Origin: Eledone cirrhosa
Lineage: Eukaryota
Assembly (NCBI GenBank): GCA_964016885.1
Contig: OZ024741.1
Location: 11,222,001 to 11,286,000, forward strand
DNA: 64,000 nt
Reading direction: 5' to 3'
Shown here one piece after another: positions 6,001-58,232 of the stretch. Position numbers and translations under genes: made by a program. Every line of letters begins with the position of its first letter. Within the stretch, counting starts at the first letter, position 1. The notes under the pieces were generated by a model that was not told the DNA's origin, searched no databases, and was given only the letters and a program-made list of their open reading frames with translations.

Positions 6001-9000
6001 AGAGATCTGTGTCTCACTTATCCACTGATCTCTCAGACAAGCCAGAGATCTATGTCTCACTTATCCACTGATCTCCCAGACAAGCCAGAGATCTGTGTCT
6101 CACTTATCCACTGATCCCCCAGACAAGCCAGAGATCTATGTCTCACTTATCCACTGATCTCCCAGACAAGCCAGAGATCTGTGTCTCACTTATCCACTGA
6201 TCCCCCAGACAAGCCAGAGATCTATGTCTCACTTATCCACTGATCTCCCAGACAAGCCAGAGATCTATGTCTCACTTATCCACTGATCCCCCAGACAAGC
6301 CAGAGATCTGTGTCTCACTTATCCACTGATCTCCCAGACAAGCCAGAGATCTGTGTCTCACTTATCCACTGATCCTCCAGACAAGCCAGAGATCTGTGTC
6401 TCACTTATCCACTGATCTCCCAGATAAGCCAGAGATCTATGTCTCACTTATCCACTGATCTCCCAGACAAGCCAGAGATCTGAGTCTCACTTATCCACTG
6501 ATCTCCCAGATAAGCCAGAGATCTGTGTCTCACTTATCCACTGATCTCCCAGACAAGCCAGAGATCTGTGTCTCACTTATCCACTGATCTCCCAGATAAG
6601 CCAGAGATCTGTGTCTCACTTATCCACTGATCTCCCAGACAAGCCAGAGATCTGTGTCTCACTTATCCACTGATCTGCCAGATAAGCCAGAGATTTATGT
6701 CTCACTTATCCATTGATCTCCCAGGCAAGCCAGAGATCTGTGTCTCACTCATCCACTGATCCTCCAGACAAGCCAGAGATCTGTGTCTCACTTATCCACT
6801 GATCTCCCAGATAAGCCAGAGATCTGTGTCTCACTTATCCACTGATCTCCCAGATAAGCCAGAGATATGTGTCTCACTTATCCACTGATCTCCCAGATAA
6901 GCCAGAGATCTGTGTCTCACTTATCCACTGATATCCCAGATAAGCCAGAGATCTATGTCTCACTTATCCACTGATCTCCCAGGCAAGCCAGAGATCTGTG
7001 TGTCAGTTATCCACTGATCTCCCAGACAAGCCAGAGATCTATGTCTCACTTATCCACTGATCTCCCAGGCAAGCCAGAGATCTATGTCTCACTTATCCAC
7101 TGATCTCCCAGACAAGCCAGAGATCTGTGTCTCACTTATCCACTGATCTCCCAGATAAGCCAGAGATCTGTGTCTCACTTATCCACTGATCTCCCAGATA
7201 AGCCAGAGATCTATGTCTCACTTATCCACTGATCTCCCAGGCAAGCCAGAGATCTGTGTGTCACTTATCCACTGATCTCCCAGACAAGCCAGAGATCTAT
7301 GTCTCACTTATCCACTGATCTCCCAGGCAAGCCAGAGATCTATGTCTCACTTATCCACTGATCTCCCAGACAAGCCAGAGATCTGTGTCTCACTTATCCA
7401 CTGATCTCCCAGATAAGCCAGAGATCTGTGTCTCACTTATCCACTGATCTCCCAGACAAGCCAGAGATCTATGTCTCACTTATCCACTGATCTCCCAGAC
7501 AGATCAGAGATCTGTGTCTCACTTATCCACTGATCCCCCAGACAAGCCAGAGATCTATGTCTCACTTATCCACTGATCTCCCAGACAGATCAGAGATCTG
7601 TGTCTCACTTATCCACTGATCTCCCAGACAAGCCAGAGATCTATGTCTCACTTATCCACTGATCTCCCAGACAAGCCAGAGATCTATGTCTCACTTATCC
7701 ACTGATCTCCCAGACAAGCCAGAGATCTGTGTCTCACTTATCCACTGATCTCTCAGACAAGCCAGAGATCTGTGTCTCACTTATCCACTGATCTCCCAGA
7801 CAAGCCAGAGATCTGTGTCTCACTTATCCACTGATCCTCCAGACAAGCCAGAGATCTGTGTCTCACTTATCCACTGATCTCCCAGATAAGCCAGAGATCT
7901 GTGTCTCACTTATCCACTGATCTCCCAGACAAGCCAGAGATCTGTGTCTCACTTATCCACTGATCCCCCAGACAAGCCAGAGATCTGTGTCTCACTTATC
8001 CACTGATCCCCCAGACAAGCCAGAGATCTGTGTCTCACTTATCCACTGATCTGCCAAACATATCAGAGATCTATGTCTCACTTATCCACTGATCTCCCAG
8101 ATAAGTCAGCGATCTGTGTCTCACTTATCCACTGATCTCCCAGACAAGCCAGAGATCTGTGTCTCACTTATCCACTGATCCCCCAGACAAGCCAGAGATC
8201 TGTGTCTCACTTATCCACTGATCTCCCAGACAAGCCAGAGATCTGTGTCTCACTCACTTATCCACTGATCTCCCAGACATATCAGAGATCTGTGTCTCAT
8301 TTATCCACTGATCCTCCAGACAAGCCAGAGATCTGTGTCTCACTTATCCACTGATCCCCCAGACAAGCCAGAGATCTGTGTCTCACTTATCCACTGATCT
8401 CTCAGACAAGCCAGAGATCTATGTCTCACTTATCCACTGATCTCCCAGACAAGCCAGAGATCTGTGTCTCACTTATCCACTGATCCCCCAGACAAGCCAG
8501 AGATCTATGTCTCACTTATCCACTGATCTCCCAGACAAGCCAGAGATCTGTGTCTCACTTATCCACTGATCCCCCAGACAAGCCAGAGATCTATGTCTCA
8601 CTTATCCACTGATCTCCCAGACAAGCCAGAGATCTATGTCTCACTTATCCACTGATCCCCCAGACAAGCCAGAGATCTGTGTCTCACTTATCCACTGATC
8701 TCCCAGACAAGCCAGAGATCTGTGTCTCACTTATCCACTGATCCTCCAGACAAGCCAGAGATCTGTGTCTCACTTATCCACTGATCTCCCAGATAAGCCA
8801 GAGATCTATGTCTCACTTATCCACTGATCTCCCAGACAAGCCAGAGATCTGAGTCTCACTTATCCACTGATCTCCCAGATAAGCCAGAGATCTGTGTCTC
8901 ACTTATCCACTGATCTCCCAGACAAGCCAGAGATCTGTGTCTCACTTATCCACTGATCTCCCAGATAAGCCAGAGATCTATGTCTCACTTATCCACTGAT

Positions 9001-12000
9001 CTCCCAGACAAGCCAGAGATCTATGTCTCACTTATCCACTGATCTCCCAGACATATCAGAGATCTTTGTCACACTTATCCACTGATCTCCCAGACAAGCC
9101 AGAGATCTGTGTCGCACTTATCCACTGATCTCCCAGACAAGCCAGAGATCTGTGTCTCACTTATCCACTTTTTTCTCCCAGATAAGCCAGAGATCTATGT
9201 CTCACTTATCCACTGATCTCCCAGATAAGCGAGAGATCTGTGTCTCACTTATCCACTGATCTCCCAGACATATCAGAGATCTGTGTCTCACTTATCCACT
9301 GATCTCCCAGACAAGCCAGAGATCTATGTCTCACTTATCCACTGATCTCCCAGACAAGCCAGAGATCTGTGTCTCACTTATCCACTGATCTCCCAGACAA
9401 GCCAGAGATCTATGTCTCACTTATCCACTGATCTCCCAGATAAGCCAGAGATCTGTGTCTCACTTATCCACTGATCTCCCAGACATATCAGAGATCTGTG
9501 TCTCACTTATCCACTACTCCCCCAGACAAGCCAGAGATCTGTGTCTCACTTATCCACTGATCTCCCAGACATATCAGAGATCTGTGTCTCACTTATCTAC
9601 TGATGCCCCAGACAAGCCAGAGATCTATGTCTCACTTATCCACTGATCCCCCAGATAAGCCAGAGATCTGTGTCTCACTTATCCACTGATCTCCCAGATA
9701 AGCCAGAGATCTATGTCTCACTTATCCACTGATCTCCCAGACAAACCAGAGAGCTATGTCTCACTTATCCACTGATCTCCCAGACAAGCCAGAGATCTGT
9801 GTCTCACTTATCCACTGATCTCCCAGACAAGCCAGAGATCTGTGTCTCACTTATCCACTGATCTCCCAGACAAGCCAGAGATCTGTGTCTCACTTATCCA
9901 CTGATCTCCCAGACAAGCCAGAGATCTGTGTCTCAGTCACTTATCCACTGATCTCCCAGACATATCAGAGATCTGTCTCTCACTTATCCACTGATCCTCC
10001 AGACAAGCCAGAGATCTGTGTCTCACTTATCCACTGATCCCCCAGACAAGCCAGAGATCTGTGTCTCAGTTATCCACTGATCTCCCAGACAAGCCAGAGA
10101 TCTGTGTCTCACTCACTTATCCACTGATCTCCCAGACATATCAGATATCTGTGTCTCACTTATCCACTGATCCTCCAGACAAGCAAGAGATCTGTGTCTC
10201 ACTTATCCACTGATCCCCCAGACAAGCCCGAGATCTGTGTCTCACTTATCCACTGATCTCTCAGACAAGCCAGAGATCTATGTCTCACTTATCCACTGAT
10301 CTCCCAGACAAGCCAGAGATCTGTGTCTCACTTATCCACTGATCCCCCAGACAAGCCAGAGATCTATGTCTCACTTATCCACTGATCTCCCAGACAAGCC
10401 AGAGATCTGTGTCTCACTTATCCACTGATCCCCCAGACAAGCCAGAGATCTATGTCTCACTTATCCACTGATCTCCCAGACAAGCCAGAGATCTATGTCT
10501 CACTTATCCACTGATCTCCCAGACAAGCCAGAGATCTGAGTCTCACTTATCCACTGATCTCCCAGATAAGCCAGAGATCTGTGTCTCACTTATCCACTGA
10601 TCTCCCAGACAAGCCAGAGATCTGTGTCTCACTTATCCACTGATCTCCCAGATAAGCCAGAGATCTGTGTCTCACTTATCCACTGATCTCCCAGACAAGC
10701 CAGAGATCTGTGTCTCACTTATCCACTGATCTGCCAGATAAGCCAGAGATCTATGTCTCACTTATCCATTGATCTCCCAGGCAAGCCAGAGATCTGTGTC
10801 TCACTCATCCACTGATCCTCCAGACAAGCCAGAGATCTGTGTCTCACTTATCCACTGATCTCCCAGATAAGCCAGAGATCTGTGTCTCACTTATCCACTG
10901 ATCTCCCAGATAAGCCAGAGATCTGTGTCTCACTTATCCACTGATCTCCCAGACAAGCCAGAGATCTGTGTGTCACTTATCCACTGATCTCCCAGACAAG
11001 CCAGAGATCTGTGTCTCACTTATCCACTGATCTCCCAGATAAGCCAGAGATCTGTGTCTCACTTATCCACTGATCTCCCAGACAAGCCAGAGATCTGTGT
11101 GTCACTTATCCACTGATCCTCCAGATAAGCCAGAGATCTGTGTGTCACTTATCCACTGATCTCCCAGATAAGCCAGAGATCTGTGTCTCACTTATCCACT
11201 GATCTCCCAGATAAGCCAGAGATCTATGTCTCACTTATCCACTGATCTCCCAGGCAAGCCAGAGATCTGTGTGTCACTTATCCACTGATCTCCCAGACAA
11301 GCCAGAGATCTATGTCTCACTTATCCACTGATCTCCCAGGCAAGCCAGAGATCTATGTCTCACTTATCCACTGATCTCCCAGACAAGCCAGAGATCTGTG
11401 TCTCACTTATCCACTGATCTCCCAGATAAGCCAGAGATCTGTGTCTCACTTATCCACTGATCTCCCAGATAAGCCAGAGATCTATGTCTCACTTATCCAC
11501 TGATCTCCCAGGCAAGCCAGAGATCTGTGTGTCACTTATCCACTGATCTCCCAGACAAGCCAGAGATCTATGTCTCACTTATCCACTGATCTCCCAGGCA
11601 AGCCAGAGATCTATGTCTCACTTATCCACTGATCTCCCAGACAAGCCAGAGATCTGTGTCTCACTTATCCACTGATCTCCCAGATAAGCCAGAGATCTGT
11701 GTCTCACTTATCCACTGATCTCCCAGACAAGCCAGAGATCTATGTCTCACTTATCCACTGATCTCCCAGACAGATCAGAGATCTGTGTCTCACTTATCCA
11801 CTGATCCCCCAGACAAGCCAGAGATCTATGTCTCACTTATCCACTGATCTCCCAGACAGATCAGAGATCTGTGTCTCACTTATCCACTGATCTCCCAGAC
11901 AAGCCAGAGATCTATGTCTCACTTATCCACTGATCTCCCAGACAAGCCAGAGATCTATGTCTCACTTATCCACTGATCTCCCAGACAAGCCAGAGATCTG

Positions 12001-13230
12001 TGTCTCACTTATCCACTGATCTCTCAGACAAGCCAGAGATCTGTGTCTCACTTATCCACTGATCTCCCAGACAAGCCAGAGATCTGTGTCTCACTTATAC
12101 ACTGATCCTCCAGACAAGCCAGAGATCTGTGTCTCACTTATCCACTGATCTCCCAGATAAGCCAGAGATCTGTGTCTCACTTATCCACTGATCTCCCAGA
12201 CAAGCCAGAGATCTGTGTCTCACTTATCCACTGATCCCCCAGACAAGCCAGAGATCTGTGTCTCACTTATCCACTGATTCCCCAGACAAGCCAGAGATCT
12301 GTGTCTCACTTATCCACTGATCTCCCAGATAAGCCAGAGATCTGTGTCTCACTTATCCACTGATCTCTCAGACAAGCCAGAGATCTGTGTCTCACTTATC
12401 CACTGATCCCCCAGACAAGCCAGTGATCTGTGTCTCACTTATCCACTGATCTCCCAGATAAGCCAGAGATCTGTGTCTCACTTATCCACTGATCTCCCAG
12501 ATAAGCCAGAGATCTGTGTCTCACTTATCCACTGATCTCCCAGACAATCCAGAGATCTGTGTCTCACTTATCCACTGATCTCCCAGATAAGCCAGAGATC
12601 TGTGTCTCACTTATCCACTGATCTCCCAGATAAGCCAGAGATCTGTGTCTCACTTATCCACTGATCTCCCAGACAATCCAGAGATCTGTGTCTCACTTAT
12701 CCACTGATCTCTCAGATAAGCCAGAGATCTGTGTCTCACTTATCCACTGATCTCCCAGACATATCAGAGATCTGTGTCTCACTTATCCACTGATCTCCCA
12801 GACAAGCCAGAGATCTGTGTCTCACTTATCCACTGATCTCCCAGATAAGCCAGAGATCTGTGTCTCACTTATCCACTGATCTCCCAGATAAGCCAGAGAT
12901 CTGTGTCTCACTTATCCACTGATCTCCCAGATAAGCCAGAGATCTGTGTCTCACTTATCCACTGATCTCCCAGATAAGCCAGAGATCTGTGTCTCACTTA
13001 TCCACTGATCTCCCAGATAAGCCAGAGATCTATGTCTCACTTATCCACTGATCTCCCAGACAAGCCAGAGATCTGTGTCTCACTTATCCACTGATCTCCC
13101 AGACAGATCAGAGATCTGTGTCTCACTTATCCACTGATCTCTGTCTCACTTATCCAATGATCTCCCAGACAGATCAAATCTGTGTCCCACATATCCAATG
13201 ATCTCCCTGACAGATCAGATATCTGTGTCT
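1..13230. repeat. 43-bp tandem satellite (consensus GAGATCTGTGTCTCACTTATCCACTGATCTCCCAGACAAGCCA), ~305 copies, runs off the left edge
   Basis: GAGATC recurs at 5, 48, 91 and onward (period 43). Copies are highly homogeneous and degenerate only at ~13140-13230. Confidence 0.98.
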
Positions 13231-14335: not shown

Positions 14336-14530
14336 CGGAACAAATGTGGTAAGGAACCAGGTGGACCATAACGCACCAAGGTACTCAATACTTAGGGTAG
14401 TAGAGTGGGTAATAGGAACAAGTAGGACCCCGACGGCTGAGCTCTCGCCGTTTCGACGGCTAATTCTGGACTCTAGAATTAGCCGTCGAAACGGCTTGAG
14501 CTCAGCCGTTGGGGTCCTACTCGTTCCTAT
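14335..14530. repeat. Fold-back element, ~57-bp arms (14412-14530), copy 1, probably PLE-derived
   Basis: ATAGGAAC..GTTTCGACGGCTAATTCT / AGAATTAGCCGTCGAAAC..GTTCCTAT. A second copy lies at 43125-43320 and a partial arm at ~14205-14250. Confidence 0.85.
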
Positions 14531-14556
14531 ATATATATATATATAATATATATATA

Positions 14557-14622
<66 letters not shown>

Positions 14623-15490: not shown

Positions 15491-18088
15491 TTGTTTCGAC
15501 CGCGGACGGCTAACATAACCCCATCGCCCCCGGCCCCTCACCGCCCCCAACCCCCAAACGCAATCCAAAACCTCAGAGTTGGTACCATAAATGTAGGCAC
15601 CCTAAAGGGTCGCGCTAACGAGGTTGTAGAAATGCTTGAACGTAAGGAGGTCGATGTTTGTTGTATTCAAGAGACCAGGTGGAGGGGTGGGTCTGCTAGG
15701 TTCATTGAGGGTAAAAAACGATGTTATAAGCTTTTCTGGGTGGGAAACGACGATGGGCTGGGTGGAGTAGGAATCATGGTAGCAGAAAAGTGGGCAGATA
15801 AGATAATAGACGTAAATAGAGTGAACGACAGAATAATTAAAATACGACTTGTCCTCAATAGAACTACGGTGACAGTAATATCTGCGTACGCACCCCAATC
15901 CGGACTGCCCGACACTATAAAAGACAGATTCTATGAGACACTGATGCTAACTACCTCCCAAATATCCGACAGTGACTATATAATTATCGCAGGCGACCTA
16001 AATGGTCACGTTGGACAACATTGTGACGGCTACGACGAAATCCATGGAGGCTATGGGTTTGGTACTAGAAATGAGGAAGGCTCCAGAATCCTGGAATTCT
16101 GTGATGCAAATAACCTAACTATCTGTAACACTAACTTCAAAAAACGTGACAATCACCTGATCACCTATAGATCCGGGGAACACACAAGCCAGGTAGATTA
16201 TATCCTTACCAGAAGACGTGACAGAGTGTCTGTTGTAAACACTAAATCCCTCCCCCATGAAGAATGCACCTCCCAACATAGACTGATAATTAGCGACCTC
16301 ATAGTCAGGACGAGACGTACTCGACAACAGAAGAGGACTATCCTCAGGAGGAAAATATGGAAGCTAAAGGACCCCACAGCCAGGAATAAATTTCAAAGCA
16401 TATTACTTGATGCTTTCGACAGTAAGGAAGAACATTTAGAGTCTGACAATATAGAGGGAGAGTGGGAATTTCTGAAAGCAAACCTGCTGTTGGCGACAGA
16501 CGAAGTCTGTGGCTGGAGCAGGCCTGTAGGCAGGAGGAGAGTAACATGGTGGTGGAACAGTAAGGTGGAGGGGTCAATTAAGGCCAAAAAGCAGGCTTGG
16601 AAAGTATGGCGGGATGGGGGAAGTCGAGAGGACTATCAAGTGGCCAGGAGGGAAGCTAGGAGACAAGTGTACTTAGCAAGAAGGGAAGCTGAGGAAAGAA
16701 AGTTCAAGCATGTTCTACAACGCGATGACCAAAAACGTGAGGTGTTCAGGATTGCTAGGCAATGCGTCAAGGAAAACCGTGATATTGTCGGGGAGAAGTG
16801 TGTACTAAACGACGATGGCACACTTGCCATCACCGACGCTGATAAGAAGGTAGCTTGGAAGTGTCACTATGAAAGGCTACTAAATGAGGAGAATAATTGG
16901 GAGAAAGGCAGTCTCCCCCATATCGACCCAATAGAGGGACCAGCAGTGTTAGTCGAGGGGAGTATAATAAGTAAGGCAATCAAGGATATGAAGACTGGTA
17001 AGGCGGCTGGGCCTTCGGAAATAGTTGCTGAGATGCTGAAGGCATCTGGCACGGTGGGACACACCATGGTCACCCGCATAGTTAACCAAGTCGTACAGAA
17101 TGGGGTTGTTCCGAAGGACTGGCATAGCAGCATCATCGTTAACTGTTATAAGGGTAAAGGAGACGCCCTAGATAGGAGTAACTATAGAGGCATTAAATTA
17201 ATCGACCAGGTCATGAAGGTCACGGAAAAAGTAATAGCGCAACTAATCAGAGAGAGAATTGACCTAGATGAAATGCAGTTCGGGTTTGTGTCAGGCAAAA
17301 GTACCACAGATGCTCTTTTCATAGTACGACAACTACAGGAGAAGTACCTAGCTAAAGGTAAACCCCTCTACTTAGCTTTTGTCGACTTGGAGAAAGCCTT
17401 CGACAGAGTCCCCCGCTCCATTATCTGGTGGGCTCTTAGAAAACTAGGCGTTGACGAATGGCTTGTGAGGGCTATACAAGCCATGTATAAAGAAACAGTC
17501 AGCAAGGTTAGAATTAACAACGAATATAGTGAAGAGTTTAGCGTAAAAGTTGGCGTCCATCAGGGCTCTGTTCTCAGTCCACTACTATTTATTATTGCCC
17601 TTCAGGCTATAACAGAGGAGTTCAAGACAGGCTGCCCATGGGAACTCCTATACGCAGACGACCTGACACTCATAGCGGAATCAATGGCCGAGCTAGAGAA
17701 GAAATTCCAAACATGGTTGTACGATGCCTGCATACGAACAGCAATGTTGCATGGTAGTGAGACCTGGGCATTGTGTGCAGAGGATATACGCAGACTAGAG
17801 AGGAACGAAGCTTGCATGCTCCGCTGGATGTGTAACAGTAATATACGTGAACGGCAAAGCATAAACGAACTAAGGAAAAAATTAGAGATAAGAGGGATCA
17901 GATGTTGTTTACTCGAGAGAAGGCTGCGTTGGTATGGACACGTGATGTGCATGAAAGTCGATAGCTGTATAACAAAGTGCAGGGCAATAAAGATAGACGG
18001 TAGCCACGGAATAGGCAGACCTAGAAAAACCTGGGATGAGCTGATAAACTCAGCCCCCTACTATTTATTATTGCCCTTCAGGCTATAA
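15491..18088 (+). CDS. RTE ORF (AP endonuclease + reverse transcriptase), 5'-truncated, with a 155-codon in-frame deletion
   Basis: 865-aa ORF; KKFQTW is fused directly to LYDACIRT. Confidence 0.9.
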   Translation: MFRPRTANITPSPPAPHRPQPPNAIQNLRVGTINVGTLKGRANEVVEMLERKEVDVCCIQETRWRGGSARFIEGKKRCYKLFWVGNDDGLGGVGIMVAEKWADKIIDVNRVNDRIIKIRLVLNRTTVTVISAYAPQSGLPDTIKDRFYETLMLTTSQISDSDYIIIAGDLNGHVGQHCDGYDEIHGGYGFGTRNEEGSRILEFCDANNLTICNTNFKKRDNHLITYRSGEHTSQVDYILTRRRDRVSVVNTKSLPHEECTSQHRLIISDLIVRTRRTRQQKRTILRRKIWKLKDPTARNKFQSILLDAFDSKEEHLESDNIEGEWEFLKANLLLATDEVCGWSRPVGRRRVTWWWNSKVEGSIKAKKQAWKVWRDGGSREDYQVARREARRQVYLARREAEERKFKHVLQRDDQKREVFRIARQCVKENRDIVGEKCVLNDDGTLAITDADKKVAWKCHYERLLNEENNWEKGSLPHIDPIEGPAVLVEGSIISKAIKDMKTGKAAGPSEIVAEMLKASGTVGHTMVTRIVNQVVQNGVVPKDWHSSIIVNCYKGKGDALDRSNYRGIKLIDQVMKVTEKVIAQLIRERIDLDEMQFGFVSGKSTTDALFIVRQLQEKYLAKGKPLYLAFVDLEKAFDRVPRSIIWWALRKLGVDEWLVRAIQAMYKETVSKVRINNEYSEEFSVKVGVHQGSVLSPLLFIIALQAITEEFKTGCPWELLYADDLTLIAESMAELEKKFQTWLYDACIRTAMLHGSETWALCAEDIRRLERNEACMLRWMCNSNIRERQSINELRKKLEIRGIRCCLLERRLRWYGHVMCMKVDSCITKCRAIKIDGSHGIGRPRKTWDELINSAPYYLLLPFRL

Positions 18089-18159
18089 CAGAGGAGTTCA
18101 AGACAGGCTGCGCATGGGAACTCCTATACGCAGACGACCTGACACTCTTAGCGGAATCA

Positions 18160-19083
18160 ATGGCCGAGCTAGAGAAGAAATTCCAAACATGGAAGCACGG
18201 CCTAGAGTCAAAAGGACTTAAAATTAACCTGGCTAAGACCAAAGTACTAGTTTGTAGGAAAGAAAACAAGGCGGCGGTCCCTTCTGGGAAATGGTCGTGC
18301 TCGGTGTGTAGGAAAGGCGTAGGTAGAAACTCCATTTTATGTCCTAAATGCAAAGTATGGGTGCATAAAAGATGTAGTGGGATCACAGGTAAGCTAACTA
18401 AGAACATAGATTTTACATGTGGCCGGTGCTCTGGTGCAATAAGTAGCAGCAAGTGCCCACAAACTACTAGCTCTTTCAATTGCGCAGAGGGTTCTATAGA
18501 AATAGTGGACAGCTTCCGTTACCTGGGCGATAAAATCAGCAGTGGGGGAGGGTGCTCTGAGAGTACTGTAGCTAGAGTCAGAACTGGTTGGAAAAAGTTC
18601 AGAGAGCTTATACCACTATTAGCTGCTAAAGGGTTCTCACTAAAAATGAAAGGCAGGTTGTACGATGCCTGCATACGAACAGCAATGCTGCATGGCAGTG
18701 AGACCTGGGCATTGTGTGCAGAGGATATACGCAGACTAGAGAGGAACGAAGCTTGCATGCTCCGCTGGATGTGTAACAGTAATATACGTGAACGGCAAAG
18801 CATAAACGAACTAAGGAAAAAATTAGAGATAAGAGGGATCAGATGTTGTTTACTCGAGAGAAGGCTACGTTGGTATGGACACGTGATGCGCATGAAAGTC
18901 GATAGCTGTATAACAAAGTGCAGGGCAATAAAGATAGACGGTAGTCACGGAATAGGCAGACCTAGAAAAACCTGGGACGAGCTGATAAACTCCGACATCA
19001 CACACTTACACCTCTCCAAGACAATGTCACTGGACCGAGACCTTTGGCGGTACTCAGTAACAGAGAAGACCCGCCTTACCTAA
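18160..19083 (+). CDS. RTE-A C-terminal fragment with intact PHD-type finger and RT thumb
   Basis: 307-aa ORF containing CSVC..CPKC..HKRC..CGRC, FRYLG and RLRWYGHV. Confidence 0.88.
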   Translation: MAELEKKFQTWKHGLESKGLKINLAKTKVLVCRKENKAAVPSGKWSCSVCRKGVGRNSILCPKCKVWVHKRCSGITGKLTKNIDFTCGRCSGAISSSKCPQTTSSFNCAEGSIEIVDSFRYLGDKISSGGGCSESTVARVRTGWKKFRELIPLLAAKGFSLKMKGRLYDACIRTAMLHGSETWALCAEDIRRLERNEACMLRWMCNSNIRERQSINELRKKLEIRGIRCCLLERRLRWYGHVMRMKVDSCITKCRAIKIDGSHGIGRPRKTWDELINSDITHLHLSKTMSLDRDLWRYSVTEKTRLT

Positions 19084-19481
19084 ATATATAGTAAAACCTA
19101 CTCCAGCCAGTAGGCATCTCTAACAAAATACACCCCGTCCCACCACCACCACCCCCACCCGATCCACACCACCCCGTTCTATGTAAAGTTATGTTGGTGC
19201 CGCGCCATCGAGGCCGAAACAAATGAGATCGTGTAGGTGTCACGACAAAAAAACACACAGTCCACGCTGTAATGTGGCCGTGTAGGCAACACGGTAAAAA
19301 CCTCCCAGACCCACACTGTAAATGTGGTTGGTGTTAGGAAGGGCATCCAACTGTAGAAAACCTGCCAGACAGTCCTATGCGAGCAAGACAATCACTCTTG
19401 CCTCAAGTGGGACTACCCCCGTCCAAACCCATGCAAGCGTGGAACACGGACGTTAAACGTTGATGATGATGATGATGATGA

Positions 19482-21081
<1,600 letters not shown>

Positions 21082-21599: not shown

Positions 21600-22446
21600 G
21601 CTCAGAAAGTACAATAACTAGGGTAAGAACGGGATGGAAGAAGTTTAGGGAACTACTACCACTGCTAGCTGCAAAAGGCTTCTCCCTCAGAATGAAAGGC
21701 AGACTGTATGATGCGTGTATCCGAACAGCGATGTTGCATGGTAGTGAGACCTGGGCGCTGAAGGTGGAAGACTTACGTAGATTAGAGAGAAACGAAGCCT
21801 GCATGCTCCGATGGATGTGTAATAGTAATATACGTGAACGACAAAGCATAAAGGAATTGAGAGAGAGACTGAGCATAAGAGGAATCAAATGCTGCGTGCA
21901 GGAGAGGCGGTTACGCTGGTATGGACATGTGATGCGTATGAAGGATGACAGCTGCATAAAAAGGTGCAGAGCACTAGAAGTTGATGGAAACCGCGGAGTG
22001 GGGAGACCCAAGATGACTTGGGATGAGGTGATAAAAGCCGACCTAACCCAACTACACCTCTCAAAGTCAATGACACACGACCGTGACTTCTGGCGTCACG
22101 CAGTAATACAGGGTACCCGACCTCCCATGGGTACATGCTGAAGCATATAAACAATATTCCCCCACTACCCCCACCGCAAGGTGGTCGTGGAGGTGCCACG
22201 GCAAAAAAGCACCCAGCCCACACTGTAAAGTGGACGTGTAGGCGCCACGAAAAAGCACCCAGCACTCACTGTAAATGAGGTTGGTGTTAGGAAGGGCATC
22301 TAGCTGTAGAAATCAAGCCAGATCAGTTCCTGTATGAGCAAGGCATGGTCAGCCGACCAGACACTGCCCAGAACAGGACAACCCGTCTAACCCATGCTAG
22401 CATGGAAGAACGGACGTAAAACGGTGATGATGATGATGATGATGAT
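21600..22446 (+). mobile_element. RTE family B, 5'-truncated
   Basis: SESTITRVRTGW...[10 protein letters not shown]-type 3' UTR and (GAT)n tail. Confidence 0.93.
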
Positions 22447-24194: not shown

Positions 24195-27091
24195 AAAGGG
24201 TCGCGCTAACGAGGTTGTAGAAATGCTTGAACGTAAGGAGGTCGATGTTTGTTGTATTCAAGAGACCAGGTGGATGGGTGGGTCTGCTAGATTCATTGAG
24301 GGTAAAAAACGATGTTATAAGCTTTTCTGGGTGGGAAACGACGATGGGCTGGGTGGAGTAGGAATCATGGTAGCAGAAAAGTGGGCAGATAAGATAATAG
24401 ACGTAAATAGAGTGAACGACAGAATAAGACTTGTCCTCAATAGAACTACGGTGACAGTAATATCTGCGTACGCACCCCAATCCGGACTGCCCGGCACTAT
24501 AAAAGACAGATTCTATGAGACACTGATGCTAACTACCTCCCAAATAACCGACAGTGACTATATAATTATTGCAGGCGACCTAAATGGTCACATTGGACAA
24601 CATTGTGACGGCTACGACGAAATCCATGGAGGCTATGGGTTTGGTACTAGAAATGAGGAAGGCTCCAGAATCCTGGAATTCTGTGATGCAAATAACCTAA
24701 CTATCTGTAACACTAACTTCAAAAAACGTGACAATCACCTGATCACCTATAGATCCGGGGAACACACAAGCCAGGTAGATTATATCCTTACCAGAAGACG
24801 TGACAGAGTGTCTGTTGTAAACACTAAATCCCTCCCCCATGAAGAATGCACCTCCCAACATAGACTGATAATTAGCGACCTCATAGTCAGGACGAGATGT
24901 ACTCGACAGCAGAAGAGGACTATCCTCAGGAGGAAAATATGGAAACTAAAGGACCCCACAGCCAGAAATAAATTTCAAAGCATATTACTTGATGCTTTCG
25001 ACAGTAAGGAAGAGCATCTAGAATCGGACAATATAGAGGGACAGTGGGAATTTCTGAAAGCAAACCTGCTGTTGGCGACAGACGAAGTCTGTGGCTGGAG
25101 CAGGCCTGTAGGCAGGAGGAGAGTAACATGGTGGTGGAACAGTAGGGTGGAGGGGTCAATTAAAGCCAAAAAGCAGGCTTGGAAAGTATGGCGGGATGGT
25201 GGAAGTAGAGTAGACTATCAAGTGGCCAGGAGGGAAGCTAGGAGAGAAGTGTACTTAGCAAGAAGGGAAGCTGAGGAAAGAAAGTTCAAGCATGTTCTAC
25301 AACGCGATGACCAAAAACGTGAGGTGTTCAGGATTGCTAGGCAATGCGTCAAGGAAAACCGTGATATTGTCGGGGAGAAGTGTGTACTTAATGATGATGG
25401 CATACTTGCCATCACCGACACTGATAAGAAGGTAGCTTGGAAGTGTCACTATGAAAGGCTACTAAATGAGGAGAATAAATGGGAGAAAGACAGTCTCCCC
25501 CATATCGACCCAATAGAGGGACCAGCAGTGTTAGTCGAGGGGAGTATAATAAGTAAGGCAATCAAGGATATGAAGACGGATAAGGCGGCTGGGCCTTCGG
25601 AAATAGTTGCTGAGATGCTGAAGGCATCTGGCACAGTGGGACACACCATGGTCACCCGCATAGTTAACCAAGTCGTACAGAATGGGGTTGTTCCGAAGGA
25701 CTGGCATAGCAGCATCATCGTTAACTGTTATAAGGGTAAAGGAGACGCCCTAGATAGGAGTAACTATAGAGGCATTAAATTAATCGACCAGGTCATGAAG
25801 GTCACGGAAAAAGTAATAGCGCAACTAATCAGAGAGAGAATTGACCTAGATGAAATGCAGTTCGGGTTTGTGTCAGGCAAAAGCACCACAGACGCTCTTT
25901 TCATAGTACGACAACTACAGGAGAAGTACCTAGCTAAAGGTAAATCCCTCTACTTAGCTTTTGTCGACCTGGAGAAAGCCTTCGACAGAGTCCCCCGCTC
26001 CATTATCTGGTGGGCTCTTAGAAAACTAGGCGTTGACGAATGGCTTGTGAGGGCTATACAAGTCATGTATAAAGAAACAGTCAGCAAGGTTAGAATTAAC
26101 AACGAATATAGTGAAGAGTTTAGCGTAAAAGTTGGCGTCCATCAGGGCTCTGTTCTCAGCCCCCTACTATTTATTATTGCCCTTCAGGCTATAACAGAGG
26201 AGTTCAAGACAGGCTGCCCATGGGAACTCCTATACGCAGATGACCTGACACTCATAGCGGAATCAATGGCCGAGCTAGAGAAGAAATTCCAAACATGGTT
26301 GTACGATGCCTGCATACGAACAGCAATGTTGCATGGTAGTGAGACCTGGGCATTGTGTGCAGAGGATATACGCAGACTAGAGAGGAACGAAGCTTGCATG
26401 CTCCGCTGGATGTGTAACAGTAATATACGTGAACGGCAAAGCATAAACGAACTAAGGAAAAAATTAGAGATAAGAGGGATCAGATGTTGTTTACTCGAGA
26501 GAAGGCTGCGTTGGTATGGACACGTGATGTGCATGAAAGTCGATAGCTGTATAACAAAGTGCAGGGCAATAAAGATAGACGGTAGCCACGGAATAGGCAG
26601 ACCTAGAAAAACCTGGGATGAGCTGATAAACTCCGACCTCACACACTTACACCTCTCCAAGACAATGTCACTGGACCGAGACCTTTGGCGGTACTCAGTA
26701 ACAGAGAAGACCCGCCTTGCCAGTAGGCATCTCTAACAAAATACACCCCGTCCCGCCACCACCCCCACCCCATCCACACCACCCCGTTCTATGTAAAGTT
26801 ATGTTGGTGCCGCGCCATCCAGGCCGAAACAAATGAGATCGTGTAGGTGTCACGACAAAAAAACACACAGTCCACGCTGTAATGTGGCCGTGTAGGCAAC
26901 ACGGTAAAAACCTCCCAGACCCACACTGTAAATGTGGTTGGTGTTAGGAAGGGCACCCAACTGTAGAAAACCTGCCAGACAGTCCTATGCGAGCAAGACA
27001 ATCACTCTTGCCTCAAGTGGGACTACCCCCGTCCAAACCCATGCAAGCGTGGAACACGGACGTTAAACGTTGATGATGATGATGATGATGA
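24195..27091 (+). mobile_element. RTE family A, 5'-truncated deletion variant (ORF 24223-26736)
   Basis: 837-aa APE+RT ORF with the same TW|LYD fusion as 15491-18088, 3' UTR and (GAT)n tail. Confidence 0.95.
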
Positions 27092-27557: not shown

Positions 27558-27875
27558 TTAATTGTAAGTTGTGATGTTGCTGTTCCACTCATATTTCCTA
27601 TTTAATTTTGGTTGTAATTCTTTTATGTTTATTGCCTCTGTGATTTGTCTAAACATTGCGTCTTTTCTGTGTGTAGATTCTATTTTTATTTCTATGTTCT
27701 CTAATTTACCCTTATGTTCTATTTTAGCATGTTGGTAGAGTACAGATGATTCTTTACTATCTTGAAGGTCTCGCCAGTGTTCATTTATCCGTTCCCCTAC
27801 ACTACGAGCTGTCTCACCTATGTACACTATATTTTTGTCTCTACATTGTCCTTCAGTACATCTTATGCTATACAC
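27558..27875 (-). pseudogene. GIY-YIG endonuclease domain of a PLE
   Basis: YIGET-R--R--EH and E---I----P-LN motifs; the upstream frame is broken. Confidence 0.85.
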
Positions 27876-28067
27876 TACATTTCTAGTTTTACAGTTAATA
27901 TGGGGGCTTATTTTACAGGTTATACATTTCTTATCTATGCAGGGGGGTCTTTGAAAAGGGTATGTCTTGCTAATAAGTGTTTTTACGGAGGTACCTGGTC
28001 TTTCTACTATCTTAATATTGAGTTTATGTTTATCTAGGGCCCTTCTAAATTTGTAAGCTAGACAGGT

Positions 28068-28827
28068 TAATTTTAAGGCCTTTTGATTCTAAGCCATGCT
28101 TCCATGTTCGGAATTTCTTCTCTCTTCGGCCATTGATTCAGCTATGAGCATTAGATCATCTGCGTATAGGAGTTCCCATGGGCAGCAGGTTTGCTTTCAG
28201 GAAATCCCACTGTTCCTCTATATTGTACGACTCTAATTGCTCTTCCTTACTGTCGAAAGCATCAAGTAATATGCTTTTAAATTTATTACTGGCTGTGGGG
28301 TCCTTTAGCTTCCATATTTTTCTCCTGAGGATAGTCCTCTTCTGTTGTCGAGTACGTCTCGTCCTGACTATGAGGTCGCTAATTATCAGTCTATCTTGGG
28401 AGGTACATTCTTCATGGGGGAGGGATTTAGTGTTTACAACAGACACTCTGTCACGTCTTCTGGTAAGGATATAATCTACCTGGCTGGTATGTTCCCCTGA
28501 TCTGTAGGTGATCAAGTGATTGTCTCGTTTTTTGAAGTTAGTGTTACAGATAGTTAGGTTATTTGTGTCACAGAATTCCAGGATTCTGGAGCCTTCCTCA
28601 TTTCTAGTACCAAACCCATAGCCTCCATGGATTCCGTCATAGCCATCACAATGTTGTCCAACATGACCATTTAGGTCGCCAGCAATAATTATATAGTCAC
28701 TGTCGGTTATTTGGGAGGTAGTGAGCATCAGTGTCTCATAGAATCTGTCTTTTATAGCGCCAGGTAGTCCGGATTGGGGTGCGTACGCAGATATTACTAT
28801 CACAGTAGTTCTATTTAGAACAAATCT
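28068..28827 (-). mobile_element. Older RTE-A fragment: APE part fused to the YADD region by a large deletion
   Basis: ORF 28156-28803 (APE). The junction AACCT-GCTG-CCCATGG at ~28185 uses GCTG microhomology. Confidence 0.88.
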
Positions 28828-31800
28828 TCATCATCATCATCATCATCAGGTTTAGCGTCCGTGTTCCACGCTTGCATGGGTTTGGACGGGGGTTTTCCCA
28901 CTTGAGGCAAGAGTGGTTGTCTTGCTCGCATAGGACTGTCTGGCGGGTTTTCTACAGCTGGATGCCCTTCCTAACACCAACCACATTTACAGTGTGGGGC
29001 TGGGAGGTTTTTACCGTGTTGCCTACACGGCCACATTACAGCGTGGACTGTCTGGCGGGTTTTCTACAGCTGGATGCCCTTCCTAACACCAACCACATTT
29101 ACAGTGTGGGGCTGGGAGGTTTTTACCGTGTTGCCTACACGGCCACATTTACAGCGTGGACTGTGTGTTTTTTTTGTCGTGACACCTACACGATCTCATT
29201 TGTTTCGGCCTGGATGTTGTGGGACCAACATAACTTTACATTGAAAGGGGCGGTGTGGATGGGGTGGAGGTGGTGGGACGGGGGTGTGTTTTGATAGAGA
29301 TGCCTACTGACTGTAGTAGGTTTTTACTTTGTATTTAGGTAAGGCGGGTCTTCTCTATTACTGAGTACCTCCAAAGGTCTCAGTCCAGTGACATTGTCTT
29401 GGAGAGGTGTAAGCGCGTGAGGTCGGAATTTATCAAGTCGTCCCAGGTTTTTCTGGGTCTGCCTACTCCGTGGCTACCGTCTATCTTTATTGCCCTGCAC
29501 TTTGTTATACAGCTGTCGTCTTTCATGCGCATCACGTGACCGTACCAACGTAGCCTTCTCTCGAGTAAACAACATCTGATCCCTCTTATTTCTAATTTTT
29601 TCCTTAGTTCGTTTATGCTTTGCCGTTCACGTATATTACTATTGCACATCCAGCGGAGCATGCAAGCTTCGTTCCTCTCTAGTCTGCGTATATCCTCTGC
29701 ACACAATGCCCAGGTCTCACTGCCATGCAGCATTGCTGTTCGTATGCAGGCATCGTATAACCTGCCTTTCATTTTTAGGGAGAACCCTCTAGCGGCTAAT
29801 AGTGGTATAAGCTCTCTGAACTTTTTCCATCCAGTTCTGACTCTAGCTACTGTACTTTCAGAGCACCCTCCCCCACTGCTGATTTTGTCACCCAGATAAC
29901 GGAAGCTGTCCACTATTTCTATAGAACCCTCTGCGCAGTTGAAGGAGCTAGTATTTTGTGGGCACTTGCTGCTACTTATTGCACCAGAGCACCGGCCACA
30001 TGTAAAATCTATGTTCTTAGTTAGCTTACCTGTGATCCCACTACATCTTTTATGCACCCATACTTTGCATTTGGGACATAAAATGGAGTTTCTACCTACG
30101 CCTTTCCTACACACTGAGCATGGCCATTTCCCGGAAGGGACCGCCGCCTTATTTTCTTTCCTACAAACTAGAACTTTAGTCTTAGCCAGGTTAATTTTAA
30201 GGCCTTTTGATTCTAGGCCGTGCTTCCATGTTTGGAATTTCTTCTCTAGCTCGGCCATTGATTCCGCTATGAGTGTCAGGTCGTCTGCGTATAGGAGTTC
30301 CCATGGGCAGCCGGTCTTGAACTCCTCTGTTATAGCCTGAAGGGCAATAATAAATAGTAGGGTGCTAAGAACAGAGCCCTGATGGACACCAACTTTTACG
30401 CTAAACTCTTCACTATATTCGTTGTTAATTCTAACCTTACTGACTGTTTCTTTATACATGGCTTGTATGGCTCTCACAAGCCATTCGTCAACACCTAGTT
30501 TTCTAAGAGCCCACCAGATAATGGAACGGGGGACTCTGTCGAAGGCTTTCTCCAAGTCGACAAAAGCTAAGTAGAGGGGTTTACTTTTAGCTAGGTACTT
30601 CTCCTGTAGTTGTCGTACAATGAAAAGAGCGTCTGTGGTACTTTTACCTGACACAAACCCGAACTGTATTTCATCTAGATCAATTCTCTCTCTGATTAGT
30701 TGCGCTATTACTTTTTCCGTGACCTTCATGACCTGGTCGATTAATTTAATGCCTCTATAGTTACTCCTATCTAGGGCATCTCCTTTTCCCTTATAGCAGT
30801 TAACGATGATGCTGCTACACCAGTCCTTCGGAACAACCCCATTCTGTATGACTTGGTTAACTATCCGGGTGACCATGGTGTGTCCCACCGAACCAGATGC
30901 CTTCAGCATCTCAGCAACTATTTCCGAAGGCCCAGCCGCCTTACCCGTCTTCATATCTTTGATTGCCTTACTTATTGTACTACCCTCGACTAACACTGCT
31001 GGTCCCTCTATTGGGTCGATGTGGGGGAGACTGTCTTTCTCCCATTTATTCTCCTCATTTAGAAGCCTTTCGTAGTGACACTTCCAAGCTACCTTCTTAT
31101 CAGCGTCGGTGATGGCAAGTATGCCATCATCGTTAAGTACACACTTCTCCCCGACAATATCACGGTTTTCCTTGACACATTGCCTAGCAATCCTGAACAC
31201 CTCACGTTTTTGGTCCTCCCGTTGTAGAACATGCTTGAACTTTCTTTCCTCTGCTTCCCTTCTTGCGAAGTACACTTGTCTCCTAGCTTCCCTCCTGGCC
31301 ACTTGATAGTCTTCTCTACTTCCCCCATCCCGCCATACTTTCCAAGCCTGCTTTTTTGCCTTAATTGACTCCTCCACCTTACTGTTCCACCACCATGTTA
31401 CTCTCCTCCTACCTATAGGCCTGCTCCAGCCACAGACTTCGTCTGCCGCCGTCAGCAGGTTTGCTCTCAGGAATTCCCACTGTTCCTCTATATTATACGA
31501 CTCTAATTGCTCTTCCTTACTGTCGAAAGCATCAAGTAATATGCTTTTAAATTTATTTCTGGCTATGGGGTCCTTTAGCTTCCATATTTTTCTCCTGAGG
31601 ATAGTCCTCTTCCGCTGTCTAGTACGTCTCGTCCTGACTATGAGGTCGCTAATTATCAGTCTATGTTGGGAGGTGAATTCTTCATGGGGGAGGGATTTAG
31701 TGTTAACAACAGACACTCTGTCACGTCTTCTGGTAAGGATATAATCTACCTGGCTTGTGTGTTCCCCCGATCTATAGGTGATCAAGTGATTGTCTCGTTT

Positions 31801-33431: not shown

Positions 33432-33782
33432 GGAGGCACATGGCTTAGTGGTTAGAGCATTGGCCTTGAAATCGAAAGGTTGTGAGTTCAATTCTCAGAT
33501 CGGGTGATGTGTCGTTTCCTTGAGCAAGACACTTTATTTCACATTGCTCCAGTTTACTCAGGTGTAGAAATGAGATGATAGGGACTGGGGTCCTTATCAT
33601 TCCACTGCAAAGTGGTCGCGGAGGTGCCACGGCAAAAATGCACCCAGCACTCACTGTAAATGAGGTTGGTGTTAGGAAGTGCATCCAGCTGTAGAAATCA
33701 AGCCAGAATCAGTTTCCCTCCAACCTTTGCAAGCAGGGAAAAGCGGACGTAAAATGAAATGATGATGATGAATGATGATGAT
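33432..33782 (+). mobile_element. Full-length tRNA-derived SINE with an RTE-B-type tail
   Basis: A box TGGCTTAGTGG, B box GAGTTCAATTC, central CCTTGAGCAAGACACTT domain, tail shared with the RTE-B 3' UTR, then (GAT)n. Confidence 0.92.
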
Positions 33783-33790
33783 TATATATA

Positions 33791-34235: not shown

Positions 34236-34850
34236 TGTAATAGTAATATATGTGAACGGCAAAGCATAAACGAACTAAGGGAAAAATTAGAAATAAGAGG
34301 GATTAGATATTGTTTACTCGAGAGAAGGCTACGTTGGTATGGTCACGTGATGCGCATGAAAGACAACAGCTGTATAAAAAAGTGCAGGGCAATAAAAATA
34401 GACGGTAGCCACGGAGTAGGCAGACCCAGAAAAACCTGGGACGACTTGATAAATTCCGGCCTCACACACACCTCTCCAAGACAATGTCACTGGACCGAGA
34501 TCTTTGGCGCTACACAGTAATACAGAAGACCCGCCTTACCTAAGTACAAAGTGAAACCTACTACAGTCAGTAGGCACCTATAATAAAAATACACCCCCAT
34601 CCCACCACCCCACCCCTTTCAATGTAAAGTTATGTTGGTACCACAACATCCAGTCCGAAACAAATGAGGTCGTGTAGGTGTCATGACAAAAAAACACACA
34701 GTCCACGCTGTAATGTGGCCGTGTAGGTAACACGGTAAAAACCTCCCAGTCCACACTGTAAACGTGGTAGGTGTTAGGAAGGGCATCCAGCCGTAGAAAA
34801 ACCCATGCAAGCGTGGAACATGGACGTTAAACGATGATGATGATGATAAT
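34236..34850 (+). mobile_element. RTE-A 3' fragment, older, with a 3' UTR deletion
   Basis: Matches 18772-19481 with substitutions. Confidence 0.9.
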
Positions 34851-36420: not shown

Positions 36421-36811
36421 CATTCATCATTCATCATCATTTTACATCCGCTTTTCCCTGCTTGCAAGGGTGGGACCAATATCATTTCATTTTACGTCCG
36501 CTTTTTCCCTGCTTGCAAGGGTAGGACGGGAACTGATGCTGGCTTGATTTCTACAGCTGGATGCCCTTCCTAACACCAACCTCATTTACAGTGAGTGCTG
36601 GGTGCTTTTTTGCCGTGGCACCTCCACGACCAATTTGCAGTGGAATGATAGGGACCCCAGTCCTATCATCTCATTACTACAGCTGAGTAAACTGGAGCAA
36701 TGTGAAATAAAGTGTCTTGCTAAAGGAAACAACACATCACCCGGTCTGAGAATTGAACTCACAACCTTTCGGTTGCAAGGCCAATGCTCTAACCACTAAG
36801 CCATGTGCCTC
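36421..36811 (-). mobile_element. tRNA-derived SINE (36481-36811) plus an extra tail stub (36421-36478)
   Basis: Reverse complement of 33432-33782. Confidence 0.92.
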
Positions 36812-40819: not shown

Positions 40820-42700
<1,881 letters not shown>

Positions 42701-43035
42701 CATCATCATCATTTTACGTCCGCTTTTCCCTGCTTGCAAGGGTGGGACGGGAACTGATTCTGGCTTGATTTCTACAGCTGGATGCCCTTCCTAACACCAA
42801 CCTCATTTACAGTGAGTACTGGGTGCTTTTTTGCCGTGGCACCTCCACGACCACTTTTGCAGTGGACTGATATGAACCCCAGTCCCTATCATCTCATTTC
42901 TACAGCTGAGTAAACTGGAGCAATGTGAAATAAAGTGTCTTGCTCAAGGAAACAACACATCACCCGGTCTGAGAATTGAACTCACAACCTTTTGATTGCA
43001 AGGCAAATGCTCTAACCTCTAAGCCATGTGCCTCC
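42701..43035 (-). mobile_element. Full-length tRNA-derived SINE with an RTE-B-type tail
   Basis: Reverse complement of the 33432-33782 family. Confidence 0.93.
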
Positions 43036-54180: not shown

Positions 54181-54190
54181 TATATATACA

Positions 54191-54224
<34 letters not shown>

Positions 54225-57800: not shown

Positions 57801-58196
57801 CGTCGTAGCCGTCACAATGTTGCCCAACGTGACCATTTAGGTCGCCTGCAATAATTATATAGTCACTGTCAGATATTTGGGAGGTAGTGAGCATCAGTGT
57901 CTCATAGAATCTGTCTTTTATAGTGCCGGGCAGTCCGGATTGGGGTGCATACGCAGATATTACTGTCACCGTAGTTCTATTGAGGACAAGTCGTATTTTA
58001 ATTATTCTGTCGTTCACTCTATTTACGTCTATTATCTTATCCGCCCACTTTTCTGCTACCATGATTCCTACTCCACCCAGCCCATCGTCGTTTCCCACCC
58101 AGAAAAGCTTATAACATCGTTTTTTACCCTCAATGAATCTAGCAGACCCACCCCTCCACCTGGTCTCTTGAATACAACAAACATCGACCTCCTTAC

Positions 58197-58198
<2 letters not shown>
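54870..58198 (-). mobile_element. RTE family A, young copy; ORF uninterrupted from inside APE to the stop (55219)
   Basis: ORF 55219-58239, whose first residues derive from (TA)n. It lacks the N-terminal APE segment (GTINV). Confidence 0.96.

Positions 58199-58232
<34 letters not shown>

Follow-up and report, generated by a model that had tools for sequence, protein, structure and literature searches.

Predicted tandem H-type pseudoknots in RTE-type LINE 3' UTRs from Eledone cirrhosa, a module likely to have moved from the 5' end

The 3' UTR of an RTE-type LINE of Eledone cirrhosa (family A) contains a row of four H-type pseudoknots, PK1-PK4, which is supported as a prediction by conservation and by covariation of the stems, and which is followed by a conserved core, PK5. 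The array is real and conserved and probably structural, as judged from comparisons of sequence. It is best accounted for as a relocated 5'-UTR module, which likely folds into a set of small pseudoknots of the H type; docking of the RNA on a conserved host partner is its predicted role, and the likeliest partner is the ribosome or the initiation machinery; we regard this reading as plausible but short of probable. The window, that is, the whole stretch of 64,000 nucleotides analysed, is a nest of RTE-type LINEs and SINEs among (TA)n tracts in a source genome of 3.0 Gb, and holds (GAT)n tails at 15 places and 18 occurrences of the core motif. The features discussed are given in Table 1.

Table 1. 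Features of the array and of its relatives in the window
Feature	Position	Strand	Details
Family A RTE-clade LINE, C-terminal reading frame	18040..19083	+	ORF
Upstream 3' UTR of family A: C-rich tract and decayed earlier A+B unit	19084..19228	+	25% vs family B, unalignable
PK1, type A, predicted H-type pseudoknot	19229..19256	+	UCGUG/CACGA x GUGU/ACAC, A-rich loop 3
PK2, type B, predicted pseudoknot	19257..19277	+	ACAG/CUGU x CCAC/GUGG
PK3, second type A copy	19278..19303	+	CCGUG/CACGG x AGG/CCU, shifted register; weakest slot
PK4, second type B copy	19306..19327	+	CAG/CUG x CCACA/UGUGG
PK5 core, conserved RTE 5'-UTR motif	19327..19366	+	stem GUUGG (19327-31)/CCAAC (19347-51)
RTE terminal stem-loop and (GAT)n tail, then (TA)n tract	19418..19482	+	
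Family B array	22185..22318	+	PK1, PK2, PK3 with C·A mismatch, PK4, PK5 core
tRNA-headed CORE-type SINE	33432..33785	+	one A+B unit and family B-type PK5, then family D tail
Older family A array	34670..34799	+	PK3 AGGU/ACCU
Family A, almost complete copy	55219-58263	-	APE endonuclease, RT, PHD-type finger

Families A and D encode an APE endonuclease (PF03372/PF14529) and a reverse transcriptase (PF00078) in a single ORF, as matched by Pfam; the ORFs of families D and B are about 1020-1040 aa long, and the nearest named homologue of the family A protein is from Octopus bimaculoides (65% identity). The stop codon at 19083 is followed in family A by a C-rich tract, the array, a spacer, the terminal stem-loop (19418-19452) and (GAT)n. 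A single APE and RT ORF, a repeat tail behind a terminal stem-loop and frequent 5' truncation are all found, and family A is assigned to the RTE clade because of this architecture and of the motif it has in common with RTE-2_EBu and with RTE-4_EBu, both of hagfish, the protein tree having been drawn without Repbase references. A 26-mer of the 3' core has 72,270 matches in the genome, SINEs and family B included, as against 570 for the family A 5' pattern. Family A copies at 17723-18049, 26297-26305 and 29380-33090 (-) have a common internal deletion, from the RT to the C-terminus (…FQTW/LYDAC…), and one internally deleted copy has a duplicated 5' end, both of which are signs of template jumping. 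A family A subfamily at 28828-29335 (-) and 40822-41212 (-) carries a duplicated B-A-B-PK5 block, with two cores per 3' UTR in 8 copies (cluster 60). Elsewhere in the window lie about 300 copies of a 43-bp satellite, in an array whose GC skew is strongly negative (1-13000), a long near-perfect inverted repeat between RTE tail fragments (14386-14595), an intact-looking 626-aa RT frame which we take to belong to another LINE clade (52312-54192, -) and a 176-aa frame, presumably resembling GIY-YIG-type endonucleases (27558-28088, -).

The stem pairs of PK1-PK4 had been predicted from the letters of the window alone, and all four are present at the positions in Table 1. Their crossing stems, with the short loop 1 and the A-rich last loop, were recovered on the transcribed strand by a strict scan (Watson-Crick pairs, loop 1 of 1-3, loop 2 of 0-3 and loop 3 of 2-10 nt, at least 7 bp), the ranges of which were chosen after the prediction was known. 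Exactly four H-type pseudoknots were returned on the sense strand of family A, namely PK1-PK4, and one on the antisense strand, and four were reached in 0/400 dinucleotide shuffles. PK1-PK4 are two copies of one 49-nt unit of two pseudoknots, type A (CGUG..GG..CACG..A-run..CC) and type B (CAG..stem..CUG UAAA stem); shuffling of three single units yielded both pseudoknots in 0, 3 and 0 of 2000 trials. In control regions of the same genome, 15.6 kb in all, 10 back-to-back 25-nt bins were counted, and the density of single pseudoknot motifs was 4-13 per kb. Since ordinary sequence also yields back-to-back bins, the shuffles alone are not decisive, and it is conservation together with covariation that excludes chance.

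Energies were estimated from stacking with an assumed pseudoknot penalty of 7-9.6 kcal. PK1 has a stacking energy of -15.1 kcal and comes to -5.5 to -8.1 kcal after the penalty as against -4.7 for the nested fold, so that the pseudoknot is favoured. For the type B pseudoknots the margin is small (-1.2 to -6.9 kcal with the penalty included vs -1.2 to -4.1 nested): PK2 and PK4 are equal to or modestly better than their nested folds and PK2 of family B straddles its nested value. For PK3, the hairpin is at least as good as the pseudoknot. When the whole UTR was folded with nested pairs, z values of -1.8 and -2.6 were obtained, with competing long-range pairings present.

Comparison with family B, the ORF of which ends at 22141 and is followed by a relic of an old tail arm, provides evidence for constraint. 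The two ORFs are 75% identical at the DNA level and match at 16/46 four-fold sites (35%), and identity outside the ORF is 81% in PK1-4, 88% in PK5, 83% in the tail and 54% in the spacer. Constraint on the array is seen in its A-B identity of 81-88%, compared with 35% for four-fold sites. Scanning of family B returned three pseudoknots on the sense strand and none on the antisense, a number reached by 0/400 strict shuffles and by 3/400 when G-U pairs were admitted. The original prediction that family B keeps the topology of PK1-PK4 holds for PK1, PK2 and PK4, which pass the strict scan, but only in part for PK3, whose stem 2 (GGCGC/GCACC) is interrupted halfway by a C·A mismatch that had gone unmentioned. 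The two compensatory changes that it named in family B, GGUGC/GCACC and CUCA/UGAG, and the AGGU/ACCU variant in PK3 of the older family A copy are all present in the sequence.

For a wider comparison, 436 copies from 1.2 Mb of genome stretches, the window and the pattern loci were clustered by the sequence downstream of the core, giving 15 clusters with at least four members. In 18 units, 87.6% of the cells of type A and of stem 1 of type B are paired (slid controls, 23-45%), two-sided changes occur at 5/13 pairs (15/500 shuffles) and the covariation score is attained by 3/500 shuffles, while stem 2 of type B, in 17 units, is 92% paired with a score attained by 0/500; these units are real copies hand-picked to represent subfamilies, the shuffles ignore relatedness, the invariance of CAG/CTG is by construction as CAG...CTG is demanded by the parser, and the patterns used to retrieve families C, D and E prescribe some letters of the stems. 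In stem 1 of type A, the two-sided change C-G to U-A may be a double CpG decay. About five independent compensatory changes remain, counted as events across subfamilies: in stem 1 of type A, U-A/C-G via U-G; in stem 2 of type A, U-A to A-U and also C-G to U-A; and in stem 2 of type B, A-U to U-A and also C-G to U-A. Two shifts of register are added to these, one in family A, AGG(U)/(A)CCU, and one in family D, where stem 2 is traded for stem 1. Covariation of the crossing stems is thus found in types A and B; it does not extend to PK5, in which neither of the stems considered, AGG/CCU and GGCA/UGCC, shows a two-sided change.

A genome-wide pattern with both partners left free gave 50 A-T, 14 T-A, 26 C·A and 10 other combinations in the first 100 of 2110 matches, counted by hand. 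Breaks are concentrated in the PK3 slot, in three subfamilies (B, 33 and 29), and PK3 is broken in a very abundant active family. In contigs of four other organisms, differences of at least 8% within PK1-4 fall at loop or PK3 positions (19287, 19301-02 and 19309-10), and none of that level was found in the stems of PK1, PK2 and PK4. After insertion the A+B unit may be multiplied into a 48-bp minisatellite, with 13-46 parsed units at four loci, in which one stem or the other has drifted to 68-78% paired. Long minisatellites of this kind, of the A+B or the C-A-B unit, were observed at L292:7850-9970 (-), L278:1360-2460 (+), L249, L073 and L325.

The outer stem of PK5, GUUGG/CCARC, is solid. Its crossing stem had been drawn as AGG/CCU, which is paired in 64% of the cells; CCT is present in 4/15 subfamily consensuses and 18/108 unselected copies, as against 15/15 and 92/108 for GC[C/T] after the core, and AGG/CCU was rejected as the general PK5 stem. 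The alternative GGCA/UGCC is paired in 83% of the cells, and these pairing frequencies favour GGC(A)/(U)GCC as the crossing stem. GGCA itself (19342-45) may pair either with UGCC (19363-66), as a pseudoknot, or with UGUU, as a hairpin, both being equally possible. TGCC stands at the crossing position in 7/7 hagfish sequences listed; in metagenome elements, the partner GC[C/T] is found in 8/127 matches and is otherwise missing.

The same cassette occurs at the opposite end of other RTEs. Family D, retrieved with a pattern for an A+B variant, is an intact sister RTE (ORFs of 1021 and 1022 aa, 64% aa identity to family A) which carries the cassette ahead of its ORF, and the ORF runs directly into the tail hairpin with no 3' UTR. 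Its leader consists of 1-3 repeats of C-A-B, the core, an A-rich spacer and the ATG, the motif lying about 73-76 nt before the ATG in the young subfamily. The motif lies up to 600 nt upstream of the ORF in 33/36 D-like starts, a biased sample mostly retrieved via cassette patterns, in 0/16 A-like starts and in 0/1 family B start, the one example of that 5' end. It is also 5' in a more distant RTE (L088, 42-50% identity), and it is read through as an N-terminal extension, in all three frames, in 6/51 foreign RTE proteins with an endonuclease start (P0003, P0004, P0030, P0073, P0082 and P0098). At least 40 of 120 homologues end inside the tail hairpin, as family D does. Across family D, L088, hagfish RTE-2/4_EBu and SINEs, the local SINE and metagenome elements of about 250 bp, the motif is 5' in autonomous RTEs and ahead of the tail in non-autonomous elements.

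Additional pseudoknot-like units were observed in family D leaders, namely type C, whose loop 3 contains a hairpin, and a second unit, GGAG/CTCC x ACCA/TGGT (L451:1395-1700, L413:975-1130), the leader stem ACCA/TGGT being replaced by ACCT/AGGT in L284. The type C pseudoknot of family D and old families does not rise above shuffles (score attained by 49/500). The metagenome loci, at least 120 in number, belong nearly all to one family of short elements and were dropped as covariation evidence, as their variable stem positions look like independent CpG decay. These RTE-tailed elements open with the motif, and one has a 14-bp target-site duplication. L153, L173 and most of L091-L210 are such non-autonomous elements of about 250 bp, with a sharp 5' end, the core first and an RTE tail; their first 65 nt may adopt a nested multi-stem fold of HDV-like order, with no Rfam match. 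In L195:300-420 (-), a metagenome stretch resembling the hagfish RTE-4_EBu 5' UTR, a type B motif (CAG/CTG x CCTG/CGGG) adjoins the core upstream. Viral contigs gave 0 pattern matches and 0 relatives, and genome contigs three distant RTE fragments (L211-L213), with no cassette found after the ORF. The stretch just before the core of hagfish RTE-2_EBu resembles what we take to be the twister ribozyme consensus, and a ribozyme there would leave an uncapped RNA. No Rfam family was found on the array, the family D leaders or the metagenome elements, and HDV-like, twister, pistol and hammerhead ribozymes as well as viral elements were rejected on this ground.

In a midpoint-drawn tree of the last 330 aa of the protein, the clade of A/C and B (100/99) takes in every row with a 3' cassette, together with one long unlabelled row; the family D clade, with no 3' UTR, is separate (100/99). 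[quoted passage not shown] The cassette is thus likely not native to the 3' end, and appears from these comparisons to be a 5'-UTR module shifted once to the 3' UTR in the A/B/C lineage, the direction of the move being given by the outgroup proteins and hagfish. We infer that the ORF/tail junction received the cassette once, from a bipartite derivative whose 5'-UTR piece and tail would have been joined to the ORF end by a template switch; such a switch would leave the old-tail-arm relic of family B, and the 5' UTR of A/B/C would have been replaced by an unrelated AT-rich one. A bipartite-derivative route is described for SINEs in the available text of Kojima 2018 (PMC5786205). Five old elements (L425, L426, L427, L428 and L429) carry repeated C-A-B-PK5 blocks and an RTE tail without an ORF match directly upstream, and are candidates for the bipartite donors of the 3' cassette.

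The local SINE carries a further type B motif in its CORE region (33550-33574, +), which is intact in the copy at 42893-42917 (-) and also found at 36670-36694 (-); a pattern for this region has 41,897 matches. In CORE-SINEs, the CORE domain's 3' half reads CAG-x-stem-x-CTG-TAAA-stem, like the type B unit, and takes the type B form CAG/CTG x CTCA/TGAG in the local SINE. The letters of stem 2 are CCCCA/TGGGG in MIR1_AMi, ACTCA/TGAGT in BivaCORE-SINE2 (PMC4824008, in part) and ACTCA/TGAG locally, a comparison of three sequences by eye, and BivaCORE-SINE1, as printed there, is without a type B-like half. As to homology of the CORE 3' half with the RTE type B unit, the letters suggest a likeness of form only. 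In BivaMD-SINE1, from the same portion of PMC4824008, the end of the Meta-type body resembles the family D type A unit, by eye and in one sequence, and an H-type pseudoknot whose last loop is A-rich may be drawn for it. The SINE body is termed enigmatic in a passage of Kojima 2018 (PMC5786205).

As the module is kept in a 5' leader, in an untranslated Pol III SINE and in a 3' UTR, it must act regardless of its position. A host partner rather than the RT is suggested by the core, which is nearly letter-identical from hagfish to this genome while the tails differ, the homologous RT regions sampled being about 50% identical, and by the local SINE, which joins a B-type cassette to a D-type tail; the ancestral position, a short way ahead of the start codon, suggests the ribosome or the initiation machinery. 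Ahead of an ORF the cassette would help translation start, in a SINE it would bring the RNA to ribosomes making RTE protein, and in the 3' UTR it would provide the same ribosome docking from behind the ORF, where, we propose, 5'-truncated copies would keep both cis signals. The A-rich loops of the A and B units would likely form minor-groove triples, stiffening and shielding the core.

Other readings of the cassette have to be weighed against docking on a host partner. It may be bound by the protein of the RTE itself and serve, in addition to the tail, as a second cis element comparable to the 5' pseudoknot of R2, a possibility that is doubtful but deserves attention. A move beside the tail places both RT contacts on every 5'-truncated transcript; moreover, in the portions of the sources available, RTE bipartite elements keep a 5'-UTR piece and the tail (Kojima 2018, PMC5786205), the 5' and 3' pieces joined in hagfish SINEs mostly come from one RTE, a 5' pseudoknot is bound by the R2 protein and a pseudoknot is present in the 3' UTRs of A-clade R2 (PMC12503042, PMC6765202), and both UTRs are used in RTE-1 gene-writer templates. 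A site for the RTE protein would, however, be hard to reconcile with a core that is nearly invariant across phyla as protein and tail diverge, or with a SINE that mixes cassette and tail types. A version of the docking reading in which the pseudoknots are a position-independent ribosome-docking device, acting as an IRES-like leader in some LINEs, a 3' translation enhancer in this lineage and a functional counterpart of the Alu domain in SINEs, is unlikely.

The original prediction likened the 3' row to that of tobamoviruses and proposed a role in stability, translation or RT recognition, of which the latter two may still hold. On this model the row would substitute for poly(A), as in tobamoviruses, or block 3'-to-5' decay of what would be a non-polyadenylated LINE RNA. 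The architecture is the same, with consecutive small H-type pseudoknots ahead of a terminal structure (three in TMV, according to the available passages), the row has been retained at the 3' end since the A/B split, and its units have been duplicated repeatedly. However, family D and the many relatives which end in the tail hairpin have no 3' UTR, so RTEs of this group need no 3' pseudoknot row, and the same row is found in 5' leaders; a virus-like 3' role is weakened by the recurrence of the cassette as the family D leader, in a SINE body and as a known hagfish RTE 5'-UTR segment, and is now quite unlikely. It is very improbable that the core acts as DNA (a promoter or transcription-factor site) and that the A+B repeats are a slippage-prone minisatellite with incidental complementarities, for although inserted copies have multiplied the 48-bp unit into extended tandem arrays (L292, L278, L249, L073), the PK5 core letters are conserved without covariation, binding of regulators is speculated on in Kojima 2018 (PMC5786205, in the text available), back-to-back pseudoknot-like pairs arise by chance about once per 1.5 kb and the A-B similarity could reflect recent exchange between families, some five independent two-sided changes and two register shifts preserve pairing, loop 1 columns vary (0.61-0.67) next to near-invariant core stem columns, the geometry fits the sense strand only (4 vs 1, 3 vs 0), and additional pseudoknot-like units, unrelated in sequence, are present in the leader of family D.

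The locus offers a concrete, mutable structure for the LINE 5'-UTR piece kept by RTE-driven SINEs, and bears on why SINE bodies such as CORE stay conserved across phyla. It is also a natural experiment, with sister autonomous families in one genome carrying the cassette at opposite ends and a SINE carrying it mid-body. As RTE UTRs are being tuned empirically for RNA-based gene insertion, according to the reports available in part, a defined cis module would be useful there. That pseudoknots had not been described in RTE 3' UTRs agrees with the literature accessible to us, PMC4758252, PMC9115989, PMC3894237 and PMC13708176 included; in it no report was found of pseudoknots in RTE 3' UTRs, in the PK5 motif or in the CORE domain, or of the relocation, although subscription papers, Repbase reports and further supplements may hold one. 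Within these sources, the predicted tandem pseudoknot units and the likely 5'-to-3' relocation are new, and the core is already known as an RTE 5'-UTR segment.

Among known systems, the HDV-like and twister ribozymes of RTE 5' UTRs (PMC8501958, PMC6765202) are likewise pseudoknotted RTE-leader RNAs, with roles in processing and cap-independent translation in the passages available; the array differs in its simple back-to-back H-type topology and matches no ribozyme family. The upstream pseudoknot domain of tobamoviruses (PMC4683447) has, in the text available, likewise a row of consecutive small H-type pseudoknots, which precedes the terminal structure of a 3' UTR, but here the row belongs to a cellular retrotransposon, has no tRNA-like end and likely derives from a 5' UTR, so that the likeness is architectural; no Rfam match to that domain was obtained at E up to 5 in window positions 14000-35500. 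The pseudoknots of R2 (PMC12503042, PMC6765202) similarly lie in UTRs of a non-LTR retrotransposon and act in RNP assembly, but they are single pseudoknots of an RLE-clade element, with no tandem chain or end switch reported in the portions available. The RTE 5'-UTR segment of the bipartite SINEs of hagfish, carried by RTE-2_EBu, RTE-4_EBu and SINE1-1/2-1/2-9/2-10_EBu (Kojima 2018, PMC5786205; Kojima 2020, PMC7245038), is the same motif as the PK5 core and, in the non-autonomous elements, is kept just ahead of the RTE tail. The published passages on it assign it no structure or function, whereas at the present locus tandem predicted pseudoknot units precede the core, in the 3' UTR of autonomous intact families.
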